Source: a virus. Taken from it: a DNA stretch of 64,000 nucleotides. How positions within the stretch are numbered: the first letter of the stretch is position 1; the number at the start of each line of letters is the position of its first letter. The position numbers and the translations under genes were made by a program. Shown here one piece after another: positions 4,608 through 50,131 of the stretch. Under the pieces are notes generated by a model that searched no databases, had not been told where the DNA came from, and was given only the letters and a program-made list of their open reading frames with translations. The stretch lies in IMG/VR virus record IMGVR_UViG_3300028601_000033, positions 3,219 to 67,218 of that record; one strand, written 5' to 3'.

Positions 4608-4640
4608 GAACCCGTTAAATTAACCTAAGAGCTGTACCCC
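4608..4640 (+). promoter_or_regulatory. conserved phage motif copy 1 (putative phage RNAP promoter) upstream of packaging genes
   Basis: GAACCCGTTAAATTAACC+TAAGAGCTGTACCCC; recurs at 20701, 42692, 50114. Confidence 0.75.
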
Positions 4641-5816: not shown

Positions 5817-5923
5817 ACTTCTGATCAGACAAGTTGAGAATGGATATGATATCAATAACCCTGTGTCTTTAGGTAGTTTCATTGCTAATTGGGCAGCCAA
5901 TAAAAGCAAAGAAAGGTCTAATA

Positions 5924-6109
5924 ATGGAGAAAAATGAAGACTTAAAGGACTTCACAGATGAGGAATTGCTTAAAGAACTTCTTTGTAGAAACAAGCTTGT
6001 TACTGCTCCAAATAAGCCGGTATTGTGTCTTATCAATATTAGTGAGAACTTCTCTTCTGTCATCCATATTAACCCGCATGCTTTTAGGGCTTTGAGAGAG
6101 TTAACATGA
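5924..6109 (+). CDS. hypothetical protein (paralog of 5426-5650)
   Basis: DFTDEELLKELLCRNKLVTAP; ATGA overlap with terL. Confidence 0.6.
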   Translation: MEKNEDLKDFTDEELLKELLCRNKLVTAPNKPVLCLINISENFSSVIHINPHAFRALRELT

Positions 6110-7455: not shown

Positions 7456-7466
7456 AGGACAATTCA

Positions 7467-7904
7467 ATGACATCTCTTCGTAAACGTATAAACCCTGGTA
7501 ACTGGAACATAACTGCCAATGATGGCACAACCTTGGTTGCAGTTAATGTTGTAACGGGTGAAGCATTTAGTGGAACTCCTCAAGCATTTGCAGCCCTTCT
7601 AAGGACACCTGTAAGTGAGACAGACCCTGTCAAGGTTTATCCTATTGTTAAAATTCTAGGTAATGAGAACCTAACTGCAGGTATTGCCCATGTAGAATCT
7701 TTGGCTATTGACGCCGAAACAGTCAGAATAGTGACACAAGAGGATATATTCGTTGAAATCGGTGAAAACCCTGTAGCTACAGTAGATTCAACAATTATGT
7801 TGGCTAATTCGTTGGAATATTTTCAGATTACTCGTGGTGATAAAGTGTCTGTCCTCCAAGTAAATGTCGGCGGTATTGTTTCTGTAGCTCCCGTTCAGAT
7901 GTAA
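7467..7904 (+). CDS. hypothetical virion-associated protein
   Basis: AAGGA RBS; N-terminal ~45 aa homologous to the C-terminus of 14160-14429. Confidence 0.65.
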   Translation: MTSLRKRINPGNWNITANDGTTLVAVNVVTGEAFSGTPQAFAALLRTPVSETDPVKVYPIVKILGNENLTAGIAHVESLAIDAETVRIVTQEDIFVEIGENPVATVDSTIMLANSLEYFQITRGDKVSVLQVNVGGIVSVAPVQM

Positions 7905-7914
7905 GGAGGATTCC

Positions 7915-10080: not shown

Positions 10081-11222
10081 TGGCGGTTAATCTTATACCT
10101 ATCCACACCAGCACCCCCCTGCGCACCCGCAAGGGCACAGTGAGCGTGTACGATGAGAGTTACAAGGGGCCGCTGATCGAACCAGCGAGGACGAATAAGT
10201 GTACGTGTCGGAAGAGTAATCCGGTGGATACGACGAATATCACGAAGTTCGGAGACGCTGCCGCTGTACTGTCGGTGGTGGATGACACGGCTGCTTTAGC
10301 TGCTGCTGGACTGTCAGATATCTGCACCAGTGGTATGGTGTACAAGCTGGACAACTCGGCGGGTACTACAGAAGCCCGAGCAAATATCTCAGGCGCCACA
10401 GGTAACATAAACCAACACTGTCTAAGCTGTTACATCCGCATAACTGGACGCGAAGAAAAATACCCACTTCTTAGGATTTCAAATGGTACACCTGTGCCGG
10501 GGTATGACACGGCTGTTTCAACAGGGTATATCTGTAAAACTATCGGCTATTCAGAGGTGTCGTCGTCAGCTATTCTCCAAGTGTGGGCTCCAGTAGGAGC
10601 AATCGCCTACTTCATCCTCCCCGACCTCCAAGAAGGCACGTTCCTCACCTCGCCTATTTGCAAGGATTTAACCGGAGCCGACCCGCTCACCGCTCTCACC
10701 CGCCCCGCTGCCAACCTGACCCGCCCCACGGCAGGGACGGCGTTGGAGAGTGGCAATAACTTTGCGATTTATGGCAGGGTGGTGCCGAAGGCGGGAGGGC
10801 AGGGGGGTGTTTATTCCTTCGGAACATACTTGGACACAAACAATCGGACCGAATTTTATCAGGGTGCCACAGGTACTATTGCAGGGATATATAAGACGGT
10901 TGCAGGAGCCACAGTAAATGCGGCCACAGCATACACCCACGCAGCCAACACCCCCTTTGAGTACCTTCTATATCAACACTCCGTCCACGGTATGGGTATC
11001 GTTGTGCGCAGTTGGAACGGTTCGGCATGGAGCGCATGGAGTGCGTGGGCCACGAACGCCAACACAGCCAACGCACCGATAGCATCAACGTATCAAATTG
11101 GCGCACGCAACAACTCCAACCATTTCGCCGCCAATTATCCGTTCACGACAGTCATCGCCATTCCCCCTAACGCCAACCCTCAAACATGGTTGATGGACGC
11201 GCTCAGTGCGATGGGCATATAA
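10080..11222 (+). CDS. head/tail fibre-like structural protein, paralog 1
   Basis: LIEPARTN and LQEGTF.TSPI...TR.A motifs typical of phage fibre/spike proteins; GC-rich codons. Confidence 0.65.
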   Translation: MAVNLIPIHTSTPLRTRKGTVSVYDESYKGPLIEPARTNKCTCRKSNPVDTTNITKFGDAAAVLSVVDDTAALAAAGLSDICTSGMVYKLDNSAGTTEARANISGATGNINQHCLSCYIRITGREEKYPLLRISNGTPVPGYDTAVSTGYICKTIGYSEVSSSAILQVWAPVGAIAYFILPDLQEGTFLTSPICKDLTGADPLTALTRPAANLTRPTAGTALESGNNFAIYGRVVPKAGGQGGVYSFGTYLDTNNRTEFYQGATGTIAGIYKTVAGATVNAATAYTHAANTPFEYLLYQHSVHGMGIVVRSWNGSAWSAWSAWATNANTANAPIASTYQIGARNNSNHFAANYPFTTVIAIPPNANPQTWLMDALSAMGI

Positions 11223-11234
11223 AGGAGTAATAGA

Positions 11235-12374
11235 ATGGGACAAACATCATTATTTCCACCTATCGTAAATACAGCCAAAATCGGCCAAGATGTGGTGGAC
11301 AAAGAAGTCCGTTGGAGAGTTGGTGGCATGTATAAGCCTATGCAGGGTGTCTTGATTGAACCTGGAAGGACTAATAAGTGTACCTGTGTTAAGGCTAATC
11401 CGGTTGATACGACGAGCATGGCAGTGGATAGTGGGCGGCCAGAGGATTTGACAGTGGTTGATATGTCTGAAGCCTTGTTAAGGTCTGGACTATCTCACTT
11501 ATGCGTAAGCGGTATGGTGTATCGGTTGGATAACAGTACCAACGCCACAAATAGATATGCTAGATGTATGGGATCAACCGGTAATACCAACCCGCATACT
11601 ATGAGTGCTTATATTTGCGGCACAGGTAAAGGAGGTGTGCGAAAAAGTGGACTGTCAGGAGTGGGGAGTGTTGAAAACATAGCCCTTACAGACAGCTTTG
11701 TAAGGGTATCGGATATGGGCAATGCTGCTGCAACAGTATCGGAAGGCGTTATCATAGCCAATCCATATTCGGTGGTCTACTTCATCCTCCCTCAACTCGA
11801 AGAAGGTTCTTTCTGCACATCTCCTATATGGAGATCTTCAAACTATACGGAACCGAATACCCCTATAACTCGTGCGGCAGTTTGTTGTTCAGCCCCTATC
11901 GCGGACTATATGCGACCTAATAATGTCGCTTTCATGGGAGAAGTTAACCTCAATGGTCTGACCCAAACTGATCATGGTCAATTAGTAGGTACTACCGTCG
12001 ATGCGGATAACTATTTTAGAATAAATTTTCGAACCATATATAATGCTGTATATATCGAAAAACGGATTGGGGGAGTTTCATATTCTGCACCAGGATGTTT
12101 CTATGGTACTGGATTAAACACTACTATCTTCCAATATCAAGGTTTCCTATGCTCCACAAATGGTGTCGGATTGAGGATTCGATGGTATATTGATGGCGCC
12201 TGGAGTGTCTGGACGGATTGGCAGATAAATACCAATACTCAAGATGTACCTCTTGGATCTACATTTGAGATTGGGCATCAAGCCGGTGGATATCAATTGT
12301 CTGCATACCATAGATGGCATCGTACATGGTTCCATAATAATTCTAAAGCATTTCTTGAAGGACTTACGACATAA
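11235..12374 (+). CDS. head/tail fibre-like structural protein, paralog 2
   Basis: Colinear with 10080-11222: LIEPGRTNKCTC, YFILPQLEEG..TSPI, GAWS.W..W. Confidence 0.65.
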   Translation: MGQTSLFPPIVNTAKIGQDVVDKEVRWRVGGMYKPMQGVLIEPGRTNKCTCVKANPVDTTSMAVDSGRPEDLTVVDMSEALLRSGLSHLCVSGMVYRLDNSTNATNRYARCMGSTGNTNPHTMSAYICGTGKGGVRKSGLSGVGSVENIALTDSFVRVSDMGNAAATVSEGVIIANPYSVVYFILPQLEEGSFCTSPIWRSSNYTEPNTPITRAAVCCSAPIADYMRPNNVAFMGEVNLNGLTQTDHGQLVGTTVDADNYFRINFRTIYNAVYIEKRIGGVSYSAPGCFYGTGLNTTIFQYQGFLCSTNGVGLRIRWYIDGAWSVWTDWQINTNTQDVPLGSTFEIGHQAGGYQLSAYHRWHRTWFHNNSKAFLEGLTT

Positions 12375-12389
12375 GTATAGTGTATAAAA

Positions 12390-12419
12390 ATGAGGGGGTG
12401 TCCTTTGCGACACCCTCAT
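12390..12419 (+). terminator. intergenic hairpin, possible terminator or processing site
   Basis: ATGAGGG(GG)TGTC-loop-GACACCCTCAT; weak T-tract. Confidence 0.4.
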
Positions 12420-12514
12420 CTTAGAGCTTTGACGTGGAAAAGATAGATTTAATTAAACAATCTTTTAGGTGTCTTAGAATGGATAACTCTAACCGTGCAT
12501 GTTGGGTGAAATAG

Positions 12515-12943
12515 ATGACTAATACAGTAGAAGCAATTATCAAGTTTAAACCCCCCTATGATACAGATACAACTCTGGGCTTCATTGCTTTGGCTACATT
12601 TGCAAAAGAAACCTTCGGTGAAGGCGGAAATCCTGAGGCTAATATCGTAGAAGATTATCTAGGATATGTCAATACACCACCTTTGAAAGGCTACGTAAGG
12701 ACTAGAATCGGCCAGGCTTACGGTCTTGCTCTTGAGTATATTGAAGAAAATGGTGGAAGCCCTGTTGCTGAATTGATTCGAGTTGAATGGCCTGGGCTTG
12801 GTCCTGGTGCGAAATTTAATGAAGAAACACAGGAAATGGAACCCGATGGTTCGTGGCCGGATATCACTGTAGAGATGGAAAATTACGATGAAGAAGGCAA
12901 TGTAGTTGGGACATATCAGCAGGCTATCGGCAGGATTGCTTAG
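12515..12943 (+). CDS. acidic hypothetical protein
   Basis: 142-aa ORF with genome-typical codon usage. Confidence 0.6.
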   Translation: MTNTVEAIIKFKPPYDTDTTLGFIALATFAKETFGEGGNPEANIVEDYLGYVNTPPLKGYVRTRIGQAYGLALEYIEENGGSPVAELIRVEWPGLGPGAKFNEETQEMEPDGSWPDITVEMENYDEEGNVVGTYQQAIGRIA

Positions 12944-13194
12944 TGAAATGGGTAGCCTACCATAATGGTAAAGAGATTCCATATCTCTTAGGTCTCTTGT
13001 TGGCATTTGACCAGTTTTCAGGAGCATTTTGGCCAGGCGCTGATATAGATAAAACAATTAGTCATAGAGTCGGTCTAAGACGACAAAAGATGGGAGGTAA
13101 GATACCTTTTCTGAAACATCCTTTGGCTGCATCTATAGATTGGCTATGCGAACGTTTTGAAGTAGATCATACAATCAACTCTATCGGGAGTTAA
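12943..13194 (+). CDS. small hypothetical (membrane-associated) protein
   Basis: L.AFDQ....F...D.D.TIS.R.G...IDWL....DH pattern of small phage proteins near fibre genes. Confidence 0.55.
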   Translation: MKWVAYHNGKEIPYLLGLLLAFDQFSGAFWPGADIDKTISHRVGLRRQKMGGKIPFLKHPLAASIDWLCERFEVDHTINSIGS

Positions 13195-13195
13195 T

Positions 13196-13819
13196 ATGGA
13201 CAAATTATACCATGTAATTGCATCTTTAAGTATCATGTTGGGTCTGAGTTTTATAACGTCTATCCGAACCGCTTGTGTAGTAGTAATCGTAATAGGTATT
13301 TTAAAGGAACTTGTCGATAAATTTCGAGGAGGTATATTTGATTGGCAAGACATCATTGTTGATCTTATAGGTGTATTCTTAGGAGCGCTGTTGGCAGCTA
13401 TCCTGCTATGCCCTTCGAATGCTCAAGCATTTGAGTTATCCTATCCTGAGGTCGATAAAATATCTGTTGATTTTACATTTGCTCCACCACATAATGAACC
13501 TGTTATCGGTAATTTAGTGGCTCGCTATCGGGTTCGAAATGTCGTGTCCGCTCATTGGGAAAGACTTTCGTTACTTGCGGAATTCAATCTATGGGCTTGT
13601 AATCGATGGCGAACACCTAGTCAAGTTGGACATGGAATTCCCGATGCTTGGAAAGGCTCTGACTGGTCTATAGATGAGTGGCGATGGGATGCTAACTACG
13701 AGGTAGCTTATAAAGTACATAAGCATTTCGATATATTTACTGAGTATAAATGGACGGAAGAATACAAAGGTCATGACTCTTACTATTGGTTAACCGGGTT
13801 CAGAATTAATTTCCTCTAA
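13196..13819 (+). CDS. membrane protein: hydrophobic N-terminus plus putative outer-membrane beta-barrel domain
   Basis: DK.YH...KE..D....FDW.D...D..G N-terminus; AQA cleavage-like site; alternating aromatic strands ending YYWLTGFRINFL. Confidence 0.55.
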   Translation: MDKLYHVIASLSIMLGLSFITSIRTACVVVIVIGILKELVDKFRGGIFDWQDIIVDLIGVFLGALLAAILLCPSNAQAFELSYPEVDKISVDFTFAPPHNEPVIGNLVARYRVRNVVSAHWERLSLLAEFNLWACNRWRTPSQVGHGIPDAWKGSDWSIDEWRWDANYEVAYKVHKHFDIFTEYKWTEEYKGHDSYYWLTGFRINFL

Positions 13820-13831
13820 AGGAACGAAGTA

Positions 13832-14167
13832 ATGACAATTAATCAAGCTGGTGTTGTACTGTCTTCCTCATTACCTGCTGTAACACTTGCTTCAGAAACT
13901 ATACGTGAAACAACACAAAGCGCCATAAGTTTTCCGTCCAGTGACATTCTACTTTTAGTTATTAACTTAGCAATCGGTCTTATTGGATTCTTTCTTTATC
14001 GCACTCTAAAACAAAATGATGAAAATCATAAAGAGATGTTTAAAAAGATGGATAAGAATCAAGAATCTACAGAGATTCTCGCTAAAAGCTTAGAAAGACT
14101 AATCGGCGCTCATAATACTTACCACCAAACAAATATTGAAACACCGGAGATAAAACACCATGACTGA
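13832..14167 (+). CDS. single-TM coiled-coil protein
   Basis: One hydrophobic segment followed by a charged helical tail. Confidence 0.55.
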   Translation: MTINQAGVVLSSSLPAVTLASETIRETTQSAISFPSSDILLLVINLAIGLIGFFLYRTLKQNDENHKEMFKKMDKNQESTEILAKSLERLIGAHNTYHQTNIETPEIKHHD

Positions 14168-14429
14168 CGTTAAACTTAGCCCTCCTCAACTCCCTACTGG
14201 TGAAATCGTTGAGATTGAAGAAAAGATGGAAAATGAAGATACTACTATGGAAACTCCGACGGATCCTCCAGAGGAACTTGACGGTGAAGAAATTGTAGTT
14301 TTCTATGATACGCAGCCTTGTAATTGGTATATCCGCCCTGTCGGTAAACTGATTGAAGCTAAAAATGATCAATCCGGTGAGAAATTTAAAGGTACCCTGA
14401 AAGAATTCAATAAGCGTCTGAGAGGTTAA
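14160..14429 (+). CDS. small hypothetical protein preceding portal
   Basis: GGAG RBS; PCNWYI...EAKN..SGEKFKGT..EFN..LRG. Confidence 0.65.
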   Translation: MTDVKLSPPQLPTGEIVEIEEKMENEDTTMETPTDPPEELDGEEIVVFYDTQPCNWYIRPVGKLIEAKNDQSGEKFKGTLKEFNKRLRG

Positions 14430-14432
14430 TAA

Positions 14433-16028
14433 ATGGCAGTTACAAACGCTGCTCAATCAAAGGTTAAAACGGTTGCAGATCCAAATGCAAAGTATGAGTC
14501 TTTGTTGGATCTGTGGAAACGGAATAGAGCTGTTTGTGGTGGGGAGCGTTTTGTAAAAGACTTTGACGGCACCCTCGATGTTCTCAGCTTTACAAATCTT
14601 CTTATTCCATTCTCCCCTTCAATGACTCCTGAGCAGTTTCAATTCTATAAAGCAGAAGCGGAACTCCCAGGTATTACTTCCCAATTTGCAAAGATGTTGG
14701 TTGGAGGTTTACTTAGAAAGAAGCCTACTCTAAAGCTTCCCGAAGGTATTTCCACTGATGTACACGATTGGATAATGAATCAATTTGGTGTTGATGACTC
14801 ACCTATGACAACCTTTCTTGATTCAGCACTATGGGATGAAGTCCAAACATCAAGAGTATGGATTTTCGTGGATTATCCTAAAATTCTAAACCCTGAGGAA
14901 TTAACCCGCCAAGAATTGCTAGAATATAAACCTTATGCTATTTTCCAGCGAGGCGAGGCGATTGTTAACTGGCGAGTTAGAACTGATAGGCTAGGAAAAA
15001 CTATTCTAGATCGTGTTGTTGTTCGTGGTTATGAAGAGACCTTCGGGGAAGCAGGTGAAGATAATGAATTCCATCCATCTTTTCGTGATACTGTATGGGT
15101 TCATGAATTAGATAAGGCTGGTTTTTATCAGATTCGAAAATTTCAGAAAGAAGATGTTGAGAGTAATGTAGATGTCATATCAGGCCATATTCAGATAGAT
15201 ACTCTTAAGAATAAAGGAACATTTGTTCAAAAGGAGTGTAATCAGAATATTATGGCTAATGGCCAACGGCTTAACTTTATACCTGCATGGCCTCTTAACG
15301 GCAGTATCGAACCAGTGGAACCGATGCTTACAGCTATTGTAGACAAAGAAGTTGCGCTCTATAATAAGCTTAGTCGTCGTAATCATTTACTTTATGGGGC
15401 TTCCACATATACTCCTGTTATTTGTTCTGACATGACTGATGAGAAATTTCAGGCGATTGTAGATAGCGGTTTAGGTTCATGGCTTCATTTGCAGCAAGGT
15501 GACACCGCTACAGTACTCAAAACGCCTACAGACGCCCTTTCGGACATGGATAGAGCTATTGCCGCTACCATAGAGGAGATGGCGAAATTAGGTATCAGGA
15601 TGTTGACACCTGAAGTTCAACAATCTGGAGTTGCCTTAGAAATCCGTAATGCTGCTCAAACAGCTCAATTGGGTACACTTAATAGCAAAATAGGTAGCAT
15701 TATGCAGCAAGTTATTTGTTGTATGATTAACTGGCGACTAGGTCTTACCTTAAAACCTTCTGATATTGAATTTTCTTTGTCAGAAGATTTCAATCCCGTA
15801 CCTATAGGTGCCGATTGGCTTAGACTGGCAACTGAGTGGTACCAACAAGGGCTTATTCCTCGTTCAGCTTGGATCCTTATGCTTAAGCAAAACGATCTCT
15901 TGCCTCCAGATTATAATGATGAGGTAGCTAAACAGGAAATCTCGGAGGATGAATTTTTAGTGCCTACAACACCTGACAATACAAACTATTTTAATGAACA
16001 GAACAATCAAGAAACCTCTGAAACATAA
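14433..16028 (+). CDS. portal protein (DUF4055-like)
   Basis: 531 aa, head-module position, WIFVDYP and SGVAL.IR motifs. Confidence 0.85.
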   Translation: MAVTNAAQSKVKTVADPNAKYESLLDLWKRNRAVCGGERFVKDFDGTLDVLSFTNLLIPFSPSMTPEQFQFYKAEAELPGITSQFAKMLVGGLLRKKPTLKLPEGISTDVHDWIMNQFGVDDSPMTTFLDSALWDEVQTSRVWIFVDYPKILNPEELTRQELLEYKPYAIFQRGEAIVNWRVRTDRLGKTILDRVVVRGYEETFGEAGEDNEFHPSFRDTVWVHELDKAGFYQIRKFQKEDVESNVDVISGHIQIDTLKNKGTFVQKECNQNIMANGQRLNFIPAWPLNGSIEPVEPMLTAIVDKEVALYNKLSRRNHLLYGASTYTPVICSDMTDEKFQAIVDSGLGSWLHLQQGDTATVLKTPTDALSDMDRAIAATIEEMAKLGIRMLTPEVQQSGVALEIRNAAQTAQLGTLNSKIGSIMQQVICCMINWRLGLTLKPSDIEFSLSEDFNPVPIGADWLRLATEWYQQGLIPRSAWILMLKQNDLLPPDYNDEVAKQEISEDEFLVPTTPDNTNYFNEQNNQETSET

Positions 16029-16043
16029 ATGATGGAGTAATAG

Positions 16044-19000
16044 ATGACCGTTAACGTAAATACTAAAATATCTGATAAAGTAATAGATAGAGCTGCTATG
16101 ATCAGACTCTATGAGAGGCGCATTAATAAAAAGGTTTCAGTAGTTATTGACGGTCATGAAGTTCGGGTAGATAAATTAATCAAAGATGCCAACTTATCTA
16201 CTGCTGGTTTTAATCGACTACGAGATGTTATTGATAAAGAAATCCAGGGGACGTTCAAGGAAATCAAAAACGTCTCTGAACGTTCCCTAGTGGATTTAGT
16301 GACCGATCAAGTATCTTTTGCATATCAAAACCTAGAAACAGCCTTGAGTAAAGTATGGCGTACTCAAAGACCTCAACGAAGAGTAGCTGAAGAGCTAGTT
16401 TTAAATCGTCCTATTTATAATGATAAAACATTATCCGTGGGATGGTCTTCAATAGGTCTTCAAGAACGTAAAAGACTTGAAGCGGTTATTCGGAAAGGTA
16501 TTGCAGACGGTAAAACCCCTAAGGAAATTGCATTAGCTGTTCGAAAAGGGAATGTTCATAATATCACTAGAAATCAATCTCAAGCATTAGTAACCACAGC
16601 GATAACAAGTGTACATGCCCAGGCAGACCACGAGGTCTATAAGGCCAATGAGAAAGTACTTCAAGGATGGCAATATATTGCAGTACTTGACTCAAGGACT
16701 ACTTCACTTTGTGCACATCGAGATGGTCAGATATATCCTATTGGGGATATTGAGCATTTACCTCCTTCACACTATAATTGTCGATCTACTACTACGCCTG
16801 TAGTGAAGTCATATGATGATTTAGCTAAGCTAGAAGGTATCGCCTATGTTCGTAAAAGAAATCTCAGTAAACTCTCTAAGAAGGATATTGAATTTTACGA
16901 TGGACAAACACCTCTTAAAGAGTCATATCATGAATGGCTTTTACGTCAAACACCCGAAATCCAGTTAAAGCATTTAGGTGATTACCGTAAAATGGAATTA
17001 TTCCAAAAAGGTCAGCTTCATGTGGATAAATTTATCAATGACCAAGGAAATTCTGTTGGTATTCGTGAACTAAGGTTGTTAACTGATGGTGGATATACAC
17101 TGCCAGGAGATACTAAGAGATTTGCCATTGCTAAATCTAAGCTCGATAGTATGCATTTAGGTGCTTCAACTCCAGATGATTTCCTCAGTGATAAAACCCG
17201 ACAGAAGGTTTTAGAGGACTATTATGTGTTACAGGCAAATGAGCTAGATGGTTATCTCTCATTGACTAACTATCGTGGTACTTTAATAAGTTCCAAAAAA
17301 GCTGTCCGTCGAAGCGTACTAAACATGCCACCCAGAGAAGACCAGCTTAAGTTTAATCCACTTACAGGTCGTTATGATGATGCCAGACTCTTTCAACCGA
17401 ATTATGGTGTATTTGAAAATAATATGCGATTAGTTCAAGAAAGTTCTGAACTTTTGCCTAGAGATAAGGAATTTATTTCTAGTGTTATTAATAATCTATC
17501 TGAACGACTAGGATTTAATGAAAGAGCTGTAATTGCTGACAATCTCCGTATTGTCTTTGGTAGGTATCGCTCCAACGGTGAGGTGTGGGGAAATCTCAAA
17601 GCTGTCCTCCAAGGACAAATTAAATTTGATGTGATGAACGTATCGGATGCTATTGAGACGCAACTCCGTAAAGATGTAAATGTACTCAAGAGACTAATGC
17701 AAACGGAATATCATGACTCTATTCTTGGGCCACTTCAACTTCAAGATCTACATGACAATTTTGTCAGTAACATTATAGCTAAGAATAAATGGGAAGATAC
17801 TGTTGCTCCCAAAATTGCTGAAGAACTAAGAACAGCTTTCGATTTAGACATTCCTGTGAAAATTAAGATGAGGCTTTCGGATCGTGATTTGCAGGAATTT
17901 TATCTTAAGTTTGCACATCGTTTAAGTCTTGCTGATTTGCCTGATAAAGATCAATTTGCTGTTTCTCTTGGTCGTGATCTATATAACATGGCAAACTGGA
18001 ATGGCAATAGACGAGCATGGTATAATTTAGGTGACAAGATATTAAACTCTAAGAATGCTAAGAAATTCTTTGAATTGGAAACCTTTGGTGTTCAAAAAAG
18101 GAGAATGAAAAGCCGTTTAAGCGGTCAATATTTCGGCCCTTATTATGATTCTTTAGGTTTTAATATCCGTATCACGGATGCGAGAATCCAAGAGTATGCA
18201 TTATTGACCAGAAAGGTTGAACTTGGTTTACGTGTAGGTGTAACTACAAAGAAGAACCGTTTAATCTTTCGTGAAGGTTATAAAACGTATTTTGTGGATA
18301 GAGGTCTTCTCGGTCATTATGACACCCGTATTCCAATCACATCTACTTCAAGCTTCAGTGATTTTCCTGTAGAATTCATAGATAAGAATATGGTTGATGC
18401 TTTGAATTGGGCAGCTAATGCTCAATATAAAGTAGACCCCGATTTCTATGATTTTATACATAAATTGTTGTACTTTGAGGATGATCGCGGTCGTGCTAAG
18501 TATTTCAATGAGCTTAATGAATATCGTAAATATATAGCTTCAAGAGGTGACTCCTATGAACGTTTTAAAGCTATGGAATGGTTGCGGAAAGGGGATTTGT
18601 CTTTTTCTAATCATCCTTTTATTGACCATCGGGCTAGGGTGTATGATCGGGGACTTATTGGCCCACAATCTGGAGAATCTTTTAGGCCGTTTTTAAATAC
18701 TGCTCATGAAAGGTTTCTCGGTGTTGATGGATATGATAACATCAAAGACCAAATAGGTGCCTTCCTAGGAGGTCTTAGTGACTACTTTGAAGGACACTAT
18801 AACTCTCTGTCATTTACAGGACGCCAAAAGATAGCCGATAAATGGCATAAGGATATTGTTGAGATAGGTCAACATATGCTTAGAGCTAAGCCTAATAATA
18901 TTCGTGCTGTCTTGGAGAATCCTGTATTGAAAGCTGTCGATGGTGAAGAGCAAGGTAAGTTCTTGAGGTTTGCTATCGAAATGGCAAAGATTGATAATTA

Positions 19001-20696
19001 TCTTGGTGGTAATTATTCAAAGAAATCCTTAGCAAGATTAGCTGAATATAGAACTGCTTTCGCTCTTGAGCAAGATGCTTCATCATCAGGTGCTCAGATT
19101 ATTGCCTTAACGACTAGAAATAAACAACTCGCTGAACTTAGTAATGTTATCCCGACGTATCAAAAGAGACGTCTGTACGATGAGATTGCGGCGTCCACCT
19201 TCAGAGATCCTAGGTTTCAAGAGATGAACCTTAAATTAGGCCTGACTGAAAAGGATCTACGTAAAGCTGCTAAAGCTCAAAACATGGTAACATTTTACGG
19301 GGCAGGTGAAAGGACTGGTATCCTTAATGTCGAAGGTAAACTAGCCAAAGTTCTGGGTAAAGATAAAGATGTCCTGGTGGTTAAGGCTTCAGATCGAGAT
19401 AAGGTTCTTAATGAGATTTCTGCAAGAATAGCTCGATATGAAAAGTTTGATCAAGAGTTATCTGATGAATTGAGAGCATTACGTGAAAATGTCAAAGATG
19501 TGTTTAACAAAGGGCTAGATCCTGGTGATGACATACTGGAGCAACTCTACTTCCTTGAACCTAAGACTAAAGAGCTTGTCGAGAATCTTTCGCATGCTTA
19601 TACTAAAGTAATCACTCCTTCTGATTTTAGAGATATTGCAAAGATCATGAGTGAGTACTTGCAAGAACAGGTTCCGATTCTGAAGGATTTTACGAGATAT
19701 TTCGGCAGATTGGCCGAAGATTTCCTAAGTAACGCTAAACCTTCTAAGGCGGATTTTGATTGGTCTTCAGTCGCTAAAATACGCCTTCTGAAACATAGGA
19801 ACAAGGGCTACTCAATTCCTCCAGAGTGGTGTCAGCTTCTCGGCACCAAGCCAGGTGAACCCTTGAGTGAAAAACTTCTGCGGAGGCTACCTTTCTGGAA
19901 GCCTAACGGCACTCTCCATGAGCTGATTTATGGAGCTGAAGTGCCGGACGACAGGCGTATCGCAGGGTCTATCTTTAAAATAGAATTAATTAAGGGTAAG
20001 CCGATTATTAACATCAAAGTTCCCTCCACCAAGGGAGGTAAGAAAGCCGTTAAGAATAACTTGCCTAAGAGTTGGACCAATGTTCCTTGGGTTAATTTTG
20101 ACGGTAAAGTTATCGAACAGAATTTTACGCAATCCTTCGAGGAACGTCTTGTTTATAAAGACAAGTATGGAAATTGGATTACCAATATTCTTCAAATACC
20201 TCAGAAGACAGAAGCTACTTGGTGGGAACAGCTTTCTAACAAGGCTGGTCAGATTAATGATATTGCAGATGCCACGAAAGCAAGAACCGCCTTTGCAGTT
20301 AACGGTAATCACTCGAATGATGCTGTTATCGTAAAGAGGTTTCATCTTTGGGGTAAGTCTAAAAACATACCGACATCATCTATACATGATGCCTTCTTTG
20401 CTAATGCTGCGGATATGCTTGAGGCTCGAAAAGCTTTAAGAAGTATTTATGCAGAGGTTCTTCAGAAAAATGTCATTAGACAAATACTGGATGAAATGCT
20501 AGCTAGAGGTTTACCTAAGAAACTATATGATAAGTACTTAGAAGAAGCCATTCTCAAAGGTCTTATTCCGGTACCTGGAAAATCTATTGTTGGCGGTAAA
20601 GTTTTAACGATTAAAGATATACTATCTGTGGATGATATATTAAAGAAGATTCCTGAAGGATTCCTCGATGACTATGGATGGTATGGTGTAGGTTAG
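16044..20696 (+). CDS. MuF/SPP1-gp7 head morphogenesis domain fused to T7-like single-subunit RNA polymerase (putative virion RNAP)
   Basis: N-term AVLDSRTT..C..RDG and PPSHYNCRS; C-term DHRARVY, motif A QDASSSGAQ, motif B RKAAKAQNMVTFYG, motif C IHDAF. Confidence 0.9.
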   Translation: MTVNVNTKISDKVIDRAAMIRLYERRINKKVSVVIDGHEVRVDKLIKDANLSTAGFNRLRDVIDKEIQGTFKEIKNVSERSLVDLVTDQVSFAYQNLETALSKVWRTQRPQRRVAEELVLNRPIYNDKTLSVGWSSIGLQERKRLEAVIRKGIADGKTPKEIALAVRKGNVHNITRNQSQALVTTAITSVHAQADHEVYKANEKVLQGWQYIAVLDSRTTSLCAHRDGQIYPIGDIEHLPPSHYNCRSTTTPVVKSYDDLAKLEGIAYVRKRNLSKLSKKDIEFYDGQTPLKESYHEWLLRQTPEIQLKHLGDYRKMELFQKGQLHVDKFINDQGNSVGIRELRLLTDGGYTLPGDTKRFAIAKSKLDSMHLGASTPDDFLSDKTRQKVLEDYYVLQANELDGYLSLTNYRGTLISSKKAVRRSVLNMPPREDQLKFNPLTGRYDDARLFQPNYGVFENNMRLVQESSELLPRDKEFISSVINNLSERLGFNERAVIADNLRIVFGRYRSNGEVWGNLKAVLQGQIKFDVMNVSDAIETQLRKDVNVLKRLMQTEYHDSILGPLQLQDLHDNFVSNIIAKNKWEDTVAPKIAEELRTAFDLDIPVKIKMRLSDRDLQEFYLKFAHRLSLADLPDKDQFAVSLGRDLYNMANWNGNRRAWYNLGDKILNSKNAKKFFELETFGVQKRRMKSRLSGQYFGPYYDSLGFNIRITDARIQEYALLTRKVELGLRVGVTTKKNRLIFREGYKTYFVDRGLLGHYDTRIPITSTSSFSDFPVEFIDKNMVDALNWAANAQYKVDPDFYDFIHKLLYFEDDRGRAKYFNELNEYRKYIASRGDSYERFKAMEWLRKGDLSFSNHPFIDHRARVYDRGLIGPQSGESFRPFLNTAHERFLGVDGYDNIKDQIGAFLGGLSDYFEGHYNSLSFTGRQKIADKWHKDIVEIGQHMLRAKPNNIRAVLENPVLKAVDGEEQGKFLRFAIEMAKIDNYLGGNYSKKSLARLAEYRTAFALEQDASSSGAQIIALTTRNKQLAELSNVIPTYQKRRLYDEIAASTFRDPRFQEMNLKLGLTEKDLRKAAKAQNMVTFYGAGERTGILNVEGKLAKVLGKDKDVLVVKASDRDKVLNEISARIARYEKFDQELSDELRALRENVKDVFNKGLDPGDDILEQLYFLEPKTKELVENLSHAYTKVITPSDFRDIAKIMSEYLQEQVPILKDFTRYFGRLAEDFLSNAKPSKADFDWSSVAKIRLLKHRNKGYSIPPEWCQLLGTKPGEPLSEKLLRRLPFWKPNGTLHELIYGAEVPDDRRIAGSIFKIELIKGKPIINIKVPSTKGGKKAVKNNLPKSWTNVPWVNFDGKVIEQNFTQSFEERLVYKDKYGNWITNILQIPQKTEATWWEQLSNKAGQINDIADATKARTAFAVNGNHSNDAVIVKRFHLWGKSKNIPTSSIHDAFFANAADMLEARKALRSIYAEVLQKNVIRQILDEMLARGLPKKLYDKYLEEAILKGLIPVPGKSIVGGKVLTIKDILSVDDILKKIPEGFLDDYGWYGVG

Positions 20697-20700
20697 GTTT

Positions 20701-20718
20701 GAACCCGTTGAATTAACC
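20701..20718 (+). promoter_or_regulatory. conserved phage motif copy 2 upstream of scaffold/capsid genes
   Basis: GAACCCGTTGAATTAACC. Confidence 0.75.
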
Positions 20719-20824
20719 TATATTATGATAACATGAGGGGTTTTTAACTCTTCATAATAAATTTTCTAACTAATGGTATGATTGTATCATGCCTAATTGA
20801 GTTGTACTCAAGAAAGTTAATAGA

Positions 20825-21508
20825 ATGCCTGATACAAATGAAAACAATCAGAATGGTGGCGATACTAATAAACAAACTAACGATAATGGTACCACTAATA
20901 ATGGATCCAATGATAATAGTGGGCCCGAAGATATCGCCGCTAAAGTGAAGGCTGCTGTAGAAGCAGAACTCAAAGACATCAAAGAAAAGCTTAACAATGC
21001 CTATAGTGCCCGTGACACTGCATTGAACAAGGTTGCTGAATTTGAACAGAAAGAACGTGACCGTGAAGTTGAGAGGCTTAAGGCTGAAGGTAAACTTCAA
21101 GAAGCCCATGAGTTGGCTATGTCGGAACTCAAGGCTCAAAAAGCAGCACTGGAGCAACGTAATGTTGAACTTTCGAGAAACATAGACGTTCGCAGTGTTC
21201 TGACAAAATTCGAATTTCGCAATTCTAATGCACAAGAAATGGCTTTCCGTGAGATTGTACCAAATTTGGTAAAATCTGACACTGGTGTTTGGGTTCACAA
21301 AGATGGTACTAGCCTTGAAACCTATGTAACGAAGTTTATGGAAGATGATGCAAACTCATTCTTGCTTAAACCTAAAGTTAATACAGGTGGTGGTACTACC
21401 AATAACTCGAATGGTACCTCTTCGATAGCGGGTAAATCCTTGTTTGATATGAGTCAAGCAGAGGTTCTAAAACTCGCCGAAGCAGGTAAACTCCCTAAAC
21501 GTAAATAA
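20825..21508 (+). CDS. capsid scaffolding protein
   Basis: Low-complexity N-terminus, long coiled coil, GGG tail, directly before MCP. Confidence 0.8.
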   Translation: MPDTNENNQNGGDTNKQTNDNGTTNNGSNDNSGPEDIAAKVKAAVEAELKDIKEKLNNAYSARDTALNKVAEFEQKERDREVERLKAEGKLQEAHELAMSELKAQKAALEQRNVELSRNIDVRSVLTKFEFRNSNAQEMAFREIVPNLVKSDTGVWVHKDGTSLETYVTKFMEDDANSFLLKPKVNTGGGTTNNSNGTSSIAGKSLFDMSQAEVLKLAEAGKLPKRK

Positions 21509-21526: not shown

Positions 21527-22702
21527 ATGTCTTCTCCTGCTGGTGCAACTAATTTTGTACTTCAAGAAACTATCAGCGCTTACTCTGACGAAGCATACAC
21601 TAAAGCTAAGAAACTGTCTGGCACTGGTATTGTTGGTGATAACCCCAATATCGATGTTTCTACTGAAACATTTATCGGTCAGGTTCGTTGGTTCAAACCT
21701 TTGAATCCAACCATTAATACTGCATCTCTTACTGATGACACAGCAGGTACTAAGACTTCCTATGCGTCTGACTACCTGACTTATATTAAGACGGTTCGTA
21801 CGCATGGTGCAGAGAAAGTTAATCTGCAGCAGGTTGTTACGCAGCAGGATGGTCTGGCTAAAATTGGTCGTGATTTTGGTGAGACTCGTGCTCAAGACGA
21901 ACATAATGCTCTGCTTGCAGTCCTGCGTGGTGTTATGATTTCTGAGTGTATTAATGGTGCCGCTTCCGGTACTGGTTCAGCTGGTCTTGGTGGACAGACT
22001 TTTGAGAATGATCCTACCAATAAACGCTATGGTTTTTATGTAGACCTCGGTGCTTCTAAAGCTATCGTAGATGCTAGTGCTTCTGTCCAGGGTGCCGCTC
22101 GTGCTGAAGGCTTCTTGCAAGCTTTCGGTATGGCATACAAAGATTACGAACCGGAATACGCTTATCTGGTTGTCTCTCCTGCTACTCTGGCTTCTTTGCG
22201 TTCCGCTAATCTGGTAGACCAAGATCGTGTTAAGGATGGTATGGTTGAATTTAATACTATCTTTAATGGTAAGTTCCGTCTTATCGTTAGCCGTGCTACT
22301 CAGGGTCTTTCCACCGCAGAACTCACTAAGCTGAATACTGGCGCTGGTGTAGATATTGTCGGTACTAAGACTTCTTTTATTGTACTGCCTGGTGCTATTG
22401 CAATGAAACCTCTGGAAGTACCCCTTCCGACTGAAATCGCTCGTGACCCCGATGCTTACCAAGGTGGTGGTACGACTACTGTATGGTATCGTTGGGGTTA
22501 TGTCGCTGCTCCTGCTGGTTACAACTGGAAAGGTAATGCTGAGGCATTCCCCTCTGATGCTGATTACCAGAAAGCTGTTGAGGACGGTACTCCTACTGCT
22601 CTTACCAGTGTTACTGATGCATTGGCAGACACTGTCGGTACTTTCGAGCGTAAGTCTGCTTCGGCACTATCGCTCGGTATCTTGCCGGTATTCCATTCGT
22701 AA
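21527..22702 (+). CDS. major capsid protein
   Basis: 391 aa after scaffold, strong high-expression codon bias, GGG.TT.WYRWG motif. Confidence 0.85.
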   Translation: MSSPAGATNFVLQETISAYSDEAYTKAKKLSGTGIVGDNPNIDVSTETFIGQVRWFKPLNPTINTASLTDDTAGTKTSYASDYLTYIKTVRTHGAEKVNLQQVVTQQDGLAKIGRDFGETRAQDEHNALLAVLRGVMISECINGAASGTGSAGLGGQTFENDPTNKRYGFYVDLGASKAIVDASASVQGAARAEGFLQAFGMAYKDYEPEYAYLVVSPATLASLRSANLVDQDRVKDGMVEFNTIFNGKFRLIVSRATQGLSTAELTKLNTGAGVDIVGTKTSFIVLPGAIAMKPLEVPLPTEIARDPDAYQGGGTTTVWYRWGYVAAPAGYNWKGNAEAFPSDADYQKAVEDGTPTALTSVTDALADTVGTFERKSASALSLGILPVFHS

Positions 22703-24558: not shown

Positions 24559-24635
24559 GCTCTTATAGCTTTAATTGGAAGAGCGACTGACTTGTAATCA
24601 GTAGGTTGTAGGTTCGAGTCCTACTAAGAGCTCCA
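24559..24635 (+). tRNA. tRNA-Thr(UGU)
   Basis: Acceptor GCTCTTA/TAAGAGC, anticodon arm CTGA-CTTGTAA-TCAG, T-loop GGTTCGAGTCC, encoded CCA. Confidence 0.95.
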
Positions 24636-42514: not shown

Positions 42515-42555
42515 GCAACTTCAACCGCCAGAAATGGCGAAATTTGAGCCGTGTT

Positions 42556-42691: not shown

Positions 42692-42725
42692 GAACCCGTT
42701 AAATTAACCCTAGAGCTGTCCCCCC
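42692..42725 (+). promoter_or_regulatory. conserved phage motif copy 3 upstream of lysis genes
   Basis: GAACCCGTTAAATTAACC+CTAGAGCTGTCCCCC, near-identical to 4608-4640. Confidence 0.75.
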
Positions 42726-42806
42726 TATTATCCCTTTAATACTAAGGTATAGTTAGTAAATAGTAAGTAAATAATAAGTAAATATATCAATAATAGGAGT
42801 ATAAAA

Positions 42807-43682: not shown

Positions 43683-43702
43683 AGTCCCTCTTCGGAGGGA
43701 CT
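43683..43702 (+). terminator. hairpin with UUCG loop ending the lysis module
   Basis: AGTCCCTC-TTCG-GAGGGACT flanked by A-runs. Confidence 0.65.
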
Positions 43703-43772
43703 AAAAAATGCGGAAAATATGGTATCTTATATGGAAGCAAGAAAATAACCAACCCACACATTGGAGGTAATT

Positions 43773-46236: not shown

Positions 46237-47832
46237 ATGCGTGCAAGATTAATTGAATCAATCGCACAAAGACTCAAAGAAGAAATCGCACCTCAAAACC
46301 CTATCAAGTTTCTTAAGAAATTCGAGGTAGATGAATATATCGATGATGTAATATCTACAGTGTATTTGTATACAAGAGCTAAAAAGGGAAGTTCACACAA
46401 TACAATATATTTCGTAGAAGTAGCATCAGCTATAGGGCATTCTGTCAGGAATAAATTGAAGCAAAAAAGAAATTCATCTGTTGCTGTCAAAGCAGGCTCC
46501 TTCCTCTTGTATTCCTTTGAAATCCTGCAAATACTTCAAGTTGTATTAGGTCAGGGTAAAAATCATCACGCAAGTTACATTGTCCAGATGTTGGATGATG
46601 ACTGCTTACATGATTTGTGGAATAACATAGATACAGCCACAAATGAAAAATTACCCTCATTAAAACCTTATGCACCTTGGAACTCCTCTAAGCATGAAAC
46701 CGGTATATCAATTGTAAAAACCAAAAATAAAGATGTGTTAAGTATACTACATCCAGATACTCATCCATTAATATTTAATAGTTTGAATAAGTCTCAAGCT
46801 GTAGGTTGGAGAATAAATGAAGATATCTTTAACATTCACTTGTGGGCACTTCGTAACAAAACCAAAGCCTTCTCTGAAATTTGGGATTCTCAAAACCCCG
46901 AGGCTAAAACAACTAAACTGCGAGAAGCTAAAGCGATAGGTTCAATTGCTCAAAGATTTCTCAAATCTAAATTTTACCATCTGTACTATTATGATTTCAG
47001 AGGTCGTAAATACACATCAACAGCATATCTACATGAACAGGGTTCAGACCTAGCTAGAGGTTTATTACTGCGTGATGATTGCAAGCCAATCGGACCTGAG
47101 GGGTTCTTTTGCCTAATGGTGAGTATTGCTTCAAACTGGGCAGGTGATGCAGGCAGAGAAGACGGTGCAAAGACAGATAAAATACCACTGAAAGAACGAT
47201 ATTTATGGGCAATGGATAATGAAGAAATTTTATTATCCTATGCTGAATCACCGAAAATCCATCAAGGTTGGATGGACGCAGATAAGCCATGGCAATTCCT
47301 GGCTGCATGTATGGAACTAAAGAAGCTGCGAGAATGGCAATTTAAGAAAGGTGATCCAATGAATCCTTTCGAAGATTATTCTTATAAAAGTCATCTTGAG
47401 GCTTATATTGATGGGTCGAATAATGGTTCCCAACATCTGACAGCCTTAACAAGAGACGAGGTAACTGCACCTCACGTTAATCTTGTACCGCAATCACTCC
47501 CAGGTGATTTGTATAAATATATTGCAGATCATGTTTGGGAACGGTTGAATGAAACATATTCAAAACTATCAGCCACAGAAATCCAAGAGTGTAATCTATT
47601 CATTGACAAACTTGTCGATCTTAAGACAAAAATACATAACGAACCATCTGGAAGTGAGTTGCGACAAGCCCTTGTCGATGAGATTAAAATCTTAAAAGAA
47701 CAAAGTAGCCACCTAGGAGATAAACCATCAGTAGTCTTTTGGATGAAAATTGTAGATGCTAAACATAAGAGAAAAGTGGTTAAGCGTAATGTTATGACAC
47801 TCCCATATGGTGGAACTGCATATGGCTTGGGT
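46237..47832 (+). CDS. T7-like single-subunit RNA polymerase, exon 1
   Basis: DFRGRKY, DKPWQFLA, motif A IDGSNNGSQH, motif B RKVVKRNVMTLPYG. Confidence 0.92.
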
Positions 47833-48624
47833 TAATTCGGCTCAAGTAAAACTCCTCTAATTGCTGGGACATCCCTCTGGGACAATCAGCAGCGAAGCTA
47901 TACCGCCAATTAGTGTTTATCAAAGGAATATCGAAATGCCTTTTCAGAAATTTACTTTTATAGATTCTCCATCTAACATGAGTACCCGCACAATGCCTAA
48001 ATCAGGCGATTTGATCAGAAACCAACAAAATACCGGTAACTTCATCAACATCATACTTAGTGTATCATCACCTCGGAATGATGATAAGGGTATATTTGTG
48101 TATATTCGGAGTGTTAGATTTGCCAAATATAATGCTAGAGGAAAAACACCTATTACTTACCTAAAAGGCACACGATCTAGAAGTTTTAAATTTTATGTTT
48201 CAGTACCACAACAATCACATTGGCACCTAACTCGCTGTAATTGGCAATTGGTCAAACTACAAAAAGCAGTAGCTTTCAAAGAACAACGACTTTATGAGGT
48301 TATAGTTGAAGATGGTAAAGAAATTGCACGACATATAAGAACAGTCCGAAGGCCTTATGGGTTTGTAGATGTAGATAACCTAGATCAACGTATGCAAATT
48401 GTGGAAGCGTTAAAAGATGTAGATACGACATACAAGGCGCCTGAAGGCGTAAATTAATCATACACTTGGCGGTGTAGAACGTTCAACGACTATCCGTAAG
48501 GAGTACTAGGCAAGTGCCTGGGAAATGGGGAGACACTTAGGTGTAAGATATAGTCTGGTCTATATGGTAACATATAGCTGGTTTCATACCGGGGTAGAAG
48601 TAACGATTCTATCTGAACATAACG
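47833..48624 (+). mobile_element. group I intron (IA2-like) in the RNAP gene
   Basis: P1 CTTGGGT/GCTCAAG with U.G at the splice site; AATTGCTGGG/AATCAGCAG, GTTCAACGACTA, AAGATATAGTC; terminal G 48624; splicing restores YGLG|QQQI in frame. Confidence 0.92.
47936..48457 (+). CDS. intron-encoded protein of unknown family (173 aa, basic)
   Basis: AAGGA RBS; looped out of P6 (ACCGCCAA...TTGGCGGT); no GIY-YIG, HNH or LAGLIDADG motif visible. Confidence 0.7.
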   Translation: MPFQKFTFIDSPSNMSTRTMPKSGDLIRNQQNTGNFINIILSVSSPRNDDKGIFVYIRSVRFAKYNARGKTPITYLKGTRSRSFKFYVSVPQQSHWHLTRCNWQLVKLQKAVAFKEQRLYEVIVEDGKEIARHIRTVRRPYGFVDVDNLDQRMQIVEALKDVDTTYKAPEGVN

Positions 48625-49278
48625 CAGCAACAAATCAATGATGCAAAGAAACATGGTATAGATCTATTGCTTTACATGGAACATAAGTGGGGTGCATTTC
48701 TAGGAAGAGAAGTCTTTGAAGACTGTCGCATATCTTTAAAGAGACCTATGCAGTTATTGTCAATCTTTGAACAAGCAGGTAAACAAGCAGAGATTGATGG
48801 CAGGTTCTTATCTTGGATTGTACCGGTCACAGATTTTCCAGTTGTACAAAATTATGTAGAAGGAAAGATTAAGAAAGTATATGTGCAATATGGTCCTCCA
48901 AGGGGAAAAAGAAATAGTTCTGGTTATTATGACAACACACTTCAGCTCAATGTATGTTTCATCGAAGACCCGATTCCTTCCAAAAGAAAACAAGCTCAAG
49001 GAGCCAGTCCAAATGCAATCCACAGTTTAGATGCAGCGCACTTAACGATGATTGTTAATGCTTGTGATTTTCCAGTAACAACCATTCATGATTCGTTTGG
49101 ATGTTTACTAGCAGATATGCCTGTATTATTCAGGATTGTACGTGAAACATTTGTTGAGTTGTACAAGCACGACCCTTTAACGCAAATAATGAAGTACATT
49201 GGAGGTGATATCAGCGATGTAAAGTTAGGAACATTGGACTTATCTTTAGTATTAGATTCAGAATTCTGTTTTTGTTAA
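48625..49278 (+). CDS. T7-like single-subunit RNA polymerase, exon 2
   Basis: W..P...FPVVQ.Y, SPNAIHSLDAAHL, motif C IHDSF. Confidence 0.92.
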   Translation, partial: QQQINDAKKHGIDLLLYMEHKWGAFLGREVFEDCRISLKRPMQLLSIFEQAGKQAEIDGRFLSWIVPVTDFPVVQNYVEGKIKKVYVQYGPPRGKRNSSGYYDNTLQLNVCFIEDPIPSKRKQAQGASPNAIHSLDAAHLTMIVNACDFPVTTIHDSFGCLLADMPVLFRIVRETFVELYKHDPLTQIMKYIGGDISDVKLGTLDLSLVLDSEFCFC

Positions 49279-50113: not shown

Positions 50114-50131
50114 CAACCCGTTGAATTAACC
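50114..50131 (+). promoter_or_regulatory. conserved phage motif copy 4 upstream of the replication module
   Basis: CAACCCGTTGAATTAACC. Confidence 0.75.

Follow-up and report, generated by a model that had tools for sequence, protein, structure and literature searches.

The MuF-RNA polymerase fusion gene

We analysed a window of 64,000 nt of viral DNA (positions 3219-67218 of the 67,218-bp IMG/VR virus record IMGVR_UViG_3300028601_000033, rated 98% complete). One gene of this window joins a MuF-type head protein to a complete T7-type RNA polymerase (RNAP), predicted from its sequence to be active. The reading that we favour, and regard as reasonably probable on the comparative analysis below, is that of a MuF-tethered virion RNAP that would serve the early genes and would then hand over to a second phage RNAP (RNAP2), an N4-like relay made from different parts. 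A capsid-loaded, ejected early RNAP is proposed because the fused MuF is the only MuF of the 67-kb genome, because RNAP2 co-occurs with the fusion in all eight genomes at least 83% complete, because two classes of promoter-like motifs are arranged as a relay, and because the fusion gene lies within a late structural operon. The fusion gene, its parts (in amino acids, aa) and the preceding gene are as follows:

14433..16028, + strand: portal protein gene, 531 aa (phrog_145, E 5.1e-50), ending 15 nt before the fusion gene
16044..20696, + strand: MuF-RNAP fusion gene, ATG start, 1550 aa, from the list of open reading frames (ORFs) and the translation
16044..17093, + strand: MuF / SPP1 gp7-type head-morphogenesis domain, aa 1-350 (Pfam core aa 145-250 = 16476-16793)
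17094..17735, + strand: helical linker region with no fold assigned, aa 351-564
17736..20693, + strand: T7-type single-subunit RNAP, aa ~565-1550, with N-terminal domain, palm, fingers and thumb, running to the C-terminus of the protein

A first-pass annotation, made from the sequence by a model, had described a single 1550-aa ORF straight after the portal gene. The ORF list, the translation and the 15-nt gap to the portal gene agree with it: the frame is uninterrupted, with one stop codon, at its end, and encodes a protein of 175 kDa. A stop or misassembly between the two domains, which would have undone the annotation, was looked for and not found in the translation, in a second assembler's contig or in hundreds of relatives. 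The contig in question (Logan, run X1) showed 0 differences and 0 gaps over 15500-21500; X1 is probably the source sample, and the match is not independent DNA. Misassembly of the fusion is ruled out by the identical architecture of hundreds of contigs and of named phage records.

The N-terminal part was assigned to the MuF family on sequence, fold and gene position after the portal gene. Phage_Mu_F (PF04233) matched aa 145-250 with 48.5 bits (Pfam cut-off 29.6), and phrog_241 (head morphogenesis) covered aa 1-344 at E 4.3e-63 in PHROGs. Both MuF/SPP1-gp7 motifs quoted in the first-pass annotation were located, AVLDSRTTSLC at aa 213-223 and PPSHYNCRS at aa 240-248. Residues D216, T219, C223, P240, P241, H243, C246, R247 and S248 were invariant among 23 aligned family representatives with 20-66% identity. 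A predicted model of aa 1-600 (predicted local distance difference test score, pLDDT, 86.5) had 97 BFVD matches at E<=0.001, including named head-morphogenesis and minor-capsid proteins and the MuF-ADP-ribosyltransferase of Xanthomonas phage Xp12. The same model had zero matches at E<=0.001 in the PDB (Foldseek), which does not make the linker fold new. A complex prediction from the portal alignment and MuF aa 1-350 scored 0.00 ("no answer") and counts neither for nor against binding. A low-confidence, disordered hinge at aa ~349-359 separates the MuF domain from the linker region, which was confidently modelled; VIA structural alignments begin only at residue ~214 of the model of aa 351-1550.

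The C-terminal part belongs to the T7-like RNAP family by its sequence, its catalytic residues and a whole-enzyme fold with a free C-terminus. RNA_pol (PF00940) scored 46.2 bits (Pfam cut-off 22), and two RNAP families were matched in PHROGs. All the single-subunit RNAP motifs that had been read as intact were found with invariant residues: DHRARVY at aa 861-867, motif A (EQDASSSGAQ) at aa 1009-1018, motif B (RKAAKAQNMVTFYGAG) at aa 1073-1088 and motif C (SSIHDAFF) at aa 1445-1452. Across the 23 representatives R865, D1011, K1074, K1077, Y1085, G1086, D1426 and D1449 did not vary, and D1011, K1077, Y1085, G1086 and D1449 align to T7 D537, K631, Y639, G640 and D812. The H and D of an NGNHSNDA stretch, aligned to T7 H784/D787, were likewise invariant.

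The AlphaFold model of aa 351-1550 had a pLDDT of 81.5 and a predicted template modelling score (pTM) of 0.75. VIA-align placed it closest to T7 RNAP (8dh5_E; Z 29.8, root-mean-square deviation 3.6 A, 531 residues), with model residues 220-1200 paired to T7 36-883. The pairing takes in nearly all of T7 RNAP, from its N-terminal domain to its last residue. Next came the mitochondrial RNAPs of yeast and human, at Z 26-28 (yeast 27.8), then the N4 mini-vRNAP (Z 20.0) and full N4 gp50 (Z 14.4). In the PDB, a profile of the 23-member family matched T7 RNAP (E 1.7e-23), mitochondrial RNAPs (E near 1e-18) and the two N4 RNAPII subunits (E 5.6e-7 and 1.3e-4). The checks by hidden Markov model and structure prediction that had been suggested for both domains thus came out positive, with both Pfam cut-offs passed and a T7-type fold modelled. 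The C-terminus of T7-type RNAPs must stay free, which would account for the RNAP being the C-terminal partner of the fusion.

Relatives of the fusion protein

Homologues with the same fusion, which the first-pass annotation had proposed to search for, were numerous and included the cultured roseophages DSS3_VP1 and DSS3_PM1 (Naomviridae). Queried with aa 700-1550, 482 proteins were found at E<=0.001 among 8000 scored candidates. PF04233 and PF00940 occurred together in 111 of the best 120 of these 482; the remaining nine were 879-1302 aa long and came mostly from short contigs. An exhaustive phmmer search with aa 351-1550 yielded 165 cluster representatives at E<=0.001, and in the full-length ones the polymerase part always stood behind an N-terminal stretch of 600-900 residues. 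MuF was detected in 23/23 aligned representatives and RNA_pol in 19/23. Among IMG/VR stretches with a pattern match, tblastn confirmed 567 of 597; at several loci the matches to the fusion gene were spread over 5.1-6.7 kb, compared with 4.65 kb here.

Four GenBank phage records covered at least 80% of the protein: EBPR siphovirus 1 (58.5% identity), DSS3_VP1 (two records, 30.7%) and DSS3_PM1 (30.7%). In these records the gene follows the portal gene and is labelled only "head protein" or "head morphogenesis"; the fusion protein of DSS3_VP1 is YP_010105321.1 ("head morphogenesis"), and that of EBPR siphovirus 1 corresponds to gp47+gp49. In EBPR siphovirus 1 the RNAP part of the gene is interrupted by a group I intron match that lies beside an HNH ORF (L001 9179-9405, RF00028, E 1.4e-8); its 40.5 bits fall short of the gathering score of 50. 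We considered this split as evidence against the fusion and rejected it, as the break lies within the RNAP and not at the MuF/RNAP border. Invasion of the MuF-RNAP gene was seen in some relatives, in EBPR siphovirus 1 at 9179-9405 and in genome G005 at C1:12048-18350.

Some homologues were longer (1626-2073 aa). Four of them were scanned, and Pfam gave only MuF and RNA_pol. In four that were aligned (P0040, P0094, P0022 and P0088) extra segments of 97-144 residues follow residue 990; P0088 has two, of 117 and 113 residues, after 1106 and 1109. The two sets differ in that P0175 was scanned but not aligned and P0022 aligned but not scanned. Inteins were ruled out, with no intein-like ends in the four aligned proteins and no intein family in the four scanned, and the extra segments are read from these sequences as lineage-specific insertions.

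Full-text literature searches, with subscription journals outside their coverage, found no description of a MuF-RNAP fusion, and "RNA polymerase" has 0 occurrences in the main text of the DSS3_VP1 paper (PMC8323127).

Genomic context

All large ORFs of the genome lie on the + strand. Portal homologues with 41-67% identity stood directly upstream of the fusion gene in 29/29 aligned related loci; a portal-sized ORF was present upstream in 33/34 loci, and four near-duplicates were left out of the portal alignment. The structural genes that follow the fusion include:

20825-21508, + strand: scaffold gene (phrog_206, E 1.3e-7)
21527-22702, + strand: major head protein gene (phrog_247, E 4.4e-22)
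26031-34094: tape measure, 2687 aa

The tail module comprises a head-tail adaptor, a major tail protein, the tape measure, a distal tail protein and a J-like fibre. The siphovirus label given in the first-pass annotation fits this module, in which a scan matched no sheath family. Tape measures usually act as rulers at ~1.5 A per residue; if all 2687 aa found here do so, the tail would be roughly 400 nm long. Among the scanned ORFs, not every ORF having been scanned, no integrase family was matched; nor was a prohead protease family among the scanned head-module ORFs.

A second RNA polymerase

The genome encodes another, canonical T7-like RNAP, whose gene (46237-49278) is interrupted for ~790 nt just past motif B, after which the reading frame resumes:

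46237..47832, + strand: RNAP2 exon 1, canonical T7-like RNAP through motif B (PF00940, 126.5 bits)
47833..48624, + strand: group I intron, borders approximate (RF00028 match at 48283-48577)
48625..49278, + strand: RNAP2 exon 2, motif C region to stop (PF00940, 72.3 bits)

The intron match to RF00028 (34.6 bits, E 8.4e-7) did not reach the gathering score of 50, and a 198-aa ORF within the intron (47861-48457) had no PHROG or Pfam match. The RNAP2 genes of G005 and G006 are likewise broken, at different places.

The eight genomes in which the fused RNAP and canonical RNAP2 co-occurred were this one, DSS3_VP1 (RNAP2 gene at 42436-44634) and G001-G006. Within the genome studied here, the two enzymes share 24-27% identity, only over the motif A and C regions (63-105 residues), which rules out RNAP2 as a recent duplication.

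Two classes of promoter-like motifs

Two motif classes with different placement were found. The copies in the window, together with a neighbouring hairpin, are:

4609..4625, + strand: class A copy, before the packaging/head operon that holds the portal and fusion genes
20702..20718, + strand: class A 17-mer AACCCGTTGAATTAACC, 6 nt past the fusion stop, before the scaffold, capsid and tail genes
42693..42709, + strand: class A copy, before the lysis genes
43684..43701, + strand: GC-rich hairpin closing the lysis unit, read from the sequence
43708..43736, + strand: class B element GCGGAAA-N7-ATCTTATATGGAA, heading a small-ORF region that leads to RNAP2
50115..50131, + strand: class A copy, before the replication module

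Class A has the form AACCCGTTRAATTAACC, with four exact + strand copies in the window compared with 0.40 expected at <=3 mismatches. With a fifth copy at C1:2181, in the numbering of the full record, class A precedes an upstream block and the packaging/head, capsid/tail, lysis and replication blocks. No terminator-like + strand site with >4 G-C pairs was found from the class A copy at 4609 to 20696. G005 has 4-5 near copies of class A, and a copy with one mismatch ends its homologous fusion gene; none were found in G004 or in the roseophage-like genomes.

The general form of class B is GCG[GC]AAA-N7-ATCTTATATG[AG]A. Ten copies were aligned from four genomes, each 30-60 nt ahead of a ribosome-binding site (RBS) and ATG. 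When the 43.6-46.2 kb region was compared by blastn with G005 (two copies) and G006, class B alone aligned, besides a 78-nt match to G005 at 44848-44925. A diverged second copy lies at C1:1764. Two further candidates were set aside: an 11-mer shared with C1:65830 lies inside an ORF and is probably chance, and a coding site at 60930, which matches a degenerate cross-clade class B pattern whose spacing is one base off that of the window copy, was also taken as chance. An invariant ATG within class B (43719-43733 and relatives) opens a mini-ORF of 5-15 codons in several copies.

The layout recurred in DSS3_VP1. A class B-like element, GAAAACTAAGGCATCTATAATGA, occurs there twice (~35.80 and ~36.25 kb), just past the tape-measure gene and before small ORFs leading to the RNAP gene, and a different repeated 18-mer, ATAGGGTGCGTTAAAGAG, has with its variants 13 + strand copies before other modules and none from 29.4 to 45.9 kb. 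In G002 a pair of class B-like copies lies a few kb ahead of RNAP2. No class A copy lies between class B and RNAP2 in the genome studied here, and the same holds for the class A-like repeat of DSS3_VP1. Class B was recognisable in both the 38%-GC and the roseophage clades; class A is entirely different between them. This pattern of a conserved class B and a clade-specific class A fits, as far as motif comparison goes, two polymerases that each have their own promoters, and the cross-clade conservation of class B points to a phage-encoded reader that would be present before any phage gene expression. Sigma-70-like sites were not enriched in 4-22 kb (39 found, 42.6 expected).

Proposed relay and alternative explanations

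In the proposed mechanism, the MuF domain would play the role of SPP1 gp7, binding the portal during procapsid assembly so that a few copies are enclosed per head. The fusion gene would be expressed late, in the operon that it shares with the portal gene, and the protein would be ejected along with the DNA when the virion next infects a cell. The fused RNAP would then transcribe the early region from class B with no need for host RNAP; this region would yield RNAP2, which in turn would read class A before the replication, packaging/head, tail and lysis modules.

Several points weigh against this proposal. Encapsidation, ejection and polymerase activity of the fusion protein, as well as the enzyme-motif pairing, are proposals, and the reading of class B by the fused enzyme and of class A by RNAP2 is a candidate promoter assignment that we purely infer. 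Class B ends in TATAAT in DSS3_VP1 and G002, so that use of host sigma-70 is possible there. Only the fused RNAP was seen in EBPR siphovirus 1 and in G007-G009, all four of which are incomplete records (G007-G009 are fragments, 50-68% complete). The long tail implied by the 2687-aa tape measure would have to be traversed by a 175-kDa protein or its unfolded chain. Finally, the searched passages of the DSS3_VP1 paper (PMC8323127) mention no virion proteome, using "proteom" only of proteomic trees.

It is conceivable, if unlikely, that the virion does not carry the RNAP at all: the fusion would be cleaved at head maturation or act in the producer cell in a late or assembly-coupled role, with only MuF or nothing left in the capsid. 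The placement of the gene among late genes suits this account, as does the low-confidence hinge at aa 349-359 between MuF and the rest, and the presence of the protein in the particle is itself deduced. However, the scanned head-module ORFs matched no prohead protease family, and late transcription already has an explanation in RNAP2 acting at class A promoters. The covalent fusion and its linker have been kept across clades at about 30% identity, which suggests selection for co-delivery, and the gene break of EBPR siphovirus 1 falls inside the RNAP at the group I intron, not between the domains.

Still less likely, in our estimate, is that the fusion is packaged and ejected for a main job other than early expression, such as pulling in or anchoring the incoming DNA or priming replication, with host RNAP reading class B. 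Architecture and synteny would be equal to those expected of an early virion RNAP. RNAPs pull in the genome by transcription in T7 and N4 entry, the replication module here is T7-like, and class B of the roseophage clade has the TATAAT box. On the other hand, the upstream half of class B is kept between clades that differ greatly in base composition, including one with a cultured Ruegeria pomeroyi phage; such conservation is hard to fit to host sigma factors. The early region also lies mid-record, so end-to-end transcription-driven entry is not obviously needed.

We regard as very improbable a catalytically dead or exapted RNAP domain, that is, a bulky internal head or ejection protein that has kept only the fold. 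Similarity to T7 RNAP is indeed low (12-19% identity in structural alignments), the single fusion protein had 0 phmmer matches among PDB chains, and the model contains two long low-confidence insertions, at residues 887-904 and 941-991. Against this, the motif A Asp, the motif B Lys, Tyr and Gly, the H and D of NGNHSNDA and the motif C Asp are invariant in relatives down to 20% identity.

An assembly or gene-calling artefact that wrongly joined two genes can practically be dismissed, as no point was found in its favour, hundreds of contigs of independent origin and three records of cultured or named phages share the single ORF, and the second assembler's contig agrees base for base, though probably from one sample.

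Comparison with known systems

The first-pass annotation had held the fusion to be distinct from N4 gp50, and this was upheld by differences in size, flanking domains, virion type and nearest structural neighbours. N4 gp50 is likewise a single-subunit RNAP of the T7 superfamily, a late product believed to enter the host cell along with the DNA, as is inferred here from the genes. N4 also has a second phage RNAP (RNAPII) for the next gene class, a place taken here by RNAP2; the N4 virion RNAP and polymerase relay are covered in excerpts of PMC4496689 and PMC13434306. Unlike the present protein, gp50 is ~3500 aa long, has its own N- and C-terminal ejection/encapsidation domains and belongs to a podovirus; the fusion has 1550 aa made up of MuF, linker and an RNAP that ends the protein, and it sits in a siphovirus head module. 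Its RNAP is nearer to the T7 (Z 29.8) and mitochondrial (Z 27.8) enzymes than to N4 mini-vRNAP (Z 20.0). N4 late genes use host RNAP; in the genome studied here, the late modules are also preceded by class A motifs. The fusion protein is thus outside the N4 vRNAP family, though the relay proposed for it works alike.

With SPP1 gp7, Mu gpF and MuF-cargo proteins the fusion shares the N-terminal MuF domain, the gene position after the portal gene and a variable C-terminal enzymatic domain. In the consulted parts of PMC5576092 (Jamet et al. 2017), muf genes are placed immediately downstream of portal genes, and SPP1 gp7 is stated to bind the portal and to be present in 1-2 copies per capsid. C-terminal enzymatic cargo of MuF proteins (MuF-ART, MuF-PBECR, MuF-RelA/SpoT) has been proposed to be delivered into the host (parts of PMC5512222 and PMC5576092). 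The cargo of these proteins is a toxin or host-modifying enzyme, whereas here it is a 985-aa predicted template-dependent polymerase for the phage's own expression. MuF polymorphic toxins differ further in combining a toxin domain with an immunity gene in temperate phages; the fusion has a C-terminal RNAP, its next gene is the scaffold gene, and no integrase was found among the scanned ORFs. "Polymerase" has 0 occurrences in the main text of the MuF toxin survey (PMC5576092), and the polyvalent-protein survey (PMC5512222), in the portions consulted, places virion RNAPs only in N4-like phages.

T7 and mitochondrial RNAPs resemble the fused enzyme in the fold over T7 36-883, including the N-terminal domain, and in the catalytic motifs. 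T7 RNAP is produced early by host RNAP as a free protein that does not associate with the virion, and it lacks the 565-aa N-terminal extension and the large insertions between motifs B and C that mark the fused enzyme. Jumbo phages of the phiKZ/AR9 type use a virion RNAP for early genes and a second RNAP later (excerpts of PMC10612078), a two-polymerase scheme able to free the phage from host RNAP, as proposed here. Their RNAPs, however, are multisubunit beta/beta'-like enzymes of unrelated fold, and they are myoviruses with genomes >200 kb.

DSS3_VP1 and DSS3_PM1 (Naomviridae) and EBPR siphovirus 1 have a homologous fusion and the same portal-fusion-scaffold-capsid order; DSS3_VP1 also shares RNAP2 and the layout of class B and class A-like motifs. 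DSS3_VP1 differs in having deoxyuridine-containing DNA (dU-DNA). The families of its Dtm and Dcd enzymes for that trait (PF12917 and PF00383) had 0 matches in the genome studied here, and a link between the fusion and dU-DNA was rejected. What is new, as far as the literature searches reached, is the MuF-RNAP combination; virion-delivered RNAPs and MuF-borne cargo are kinds already known.

Other features of the genome

The T7-like replication module encodes a gp2.5-like single-stranded DNA-binding protein, PolA, an exonuclease, a primase-helicase, ribonucleotide reductase (RNR) and a ligase. RNR is found in two ORFs (56959-57990 and 58782-59774, both phrog_367) with a 212-aa ORF (58065-58703) between them, probably another intron with an endonuclease. 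Between terminase and portal, the block at 7915-12374 holds three ORFs (721, 380 and 379 aa) with a G+C content of 51-54%, compared with about 38% elsewhere. The first of them matches phrog_5302 ("tail protein"), none of the three has a Pfam match, and the block resembles foreign DNA inserted into the head module.

A single tRNA-Thr gene (TGT) lies inside the tail module at 24559-24635; in DSS3_VP1, a tRNA-Asn gene lies between the portal and fusion genes. Near both ends of the record, a 67-bp exact repeat comprising an RBS and ORF start occurs at C1:80-146 and C1:67024-67090 (= window 63806-63872); it could be a pair of paralogous gene starts or a trace of terminal redundancy. Two terminator-like hairpins lie outside the window at C1:2937-3027. 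The sequence was found in one DNA sequencing run (X1, possibly the source) and in no RNA run.

Implications

To our knowledge, virion-delivered RNAPs are known only from N4-like podoviruses, crAss-like phages and phiKZ/AR9-type jumbo phages, each with its own packaging solution. If the proposal is true, a MuF-tethered T7-type RNAP would be a fourth independent solution, the first in siphoviruses, and would use a ubiquitous portal-associated protein as its loading tag. The presence of two divergent single-subunit RNAPs in a widespread environmental phage group would then have an explanation as well. A cultured test system exists in DSS3_VP1 on Ruegeria pomeroyi. Whatever the role of the protein, public annotation is corrected in that a product labelled only as head morphogenesis or head protein also carries an RNAP.

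The broadest form of the proposal is one to which we give slightly less than even chances. It holds that a large, globally distributed group of siphoviruses, including the Naomviridae, may be fully independent of host RNAP: one to few MuF-tethered RNAPs, ejected through a very long tail, would start at a class B promoter kept across phages of different bacterial phyla, and a second T7-type RNAP would then act at clade-specific promoters. On this view MuF would serve as a general N-terminal address tag through which a working enzyme of ~1200 aa can be loaded into the capsid. The relay proposal itself, if it holds, offers a compact RNAP with a short conserved promoter that might be used for orthogonal transcription, and shows by a natural case how large cargo can be addressed to a capsid.

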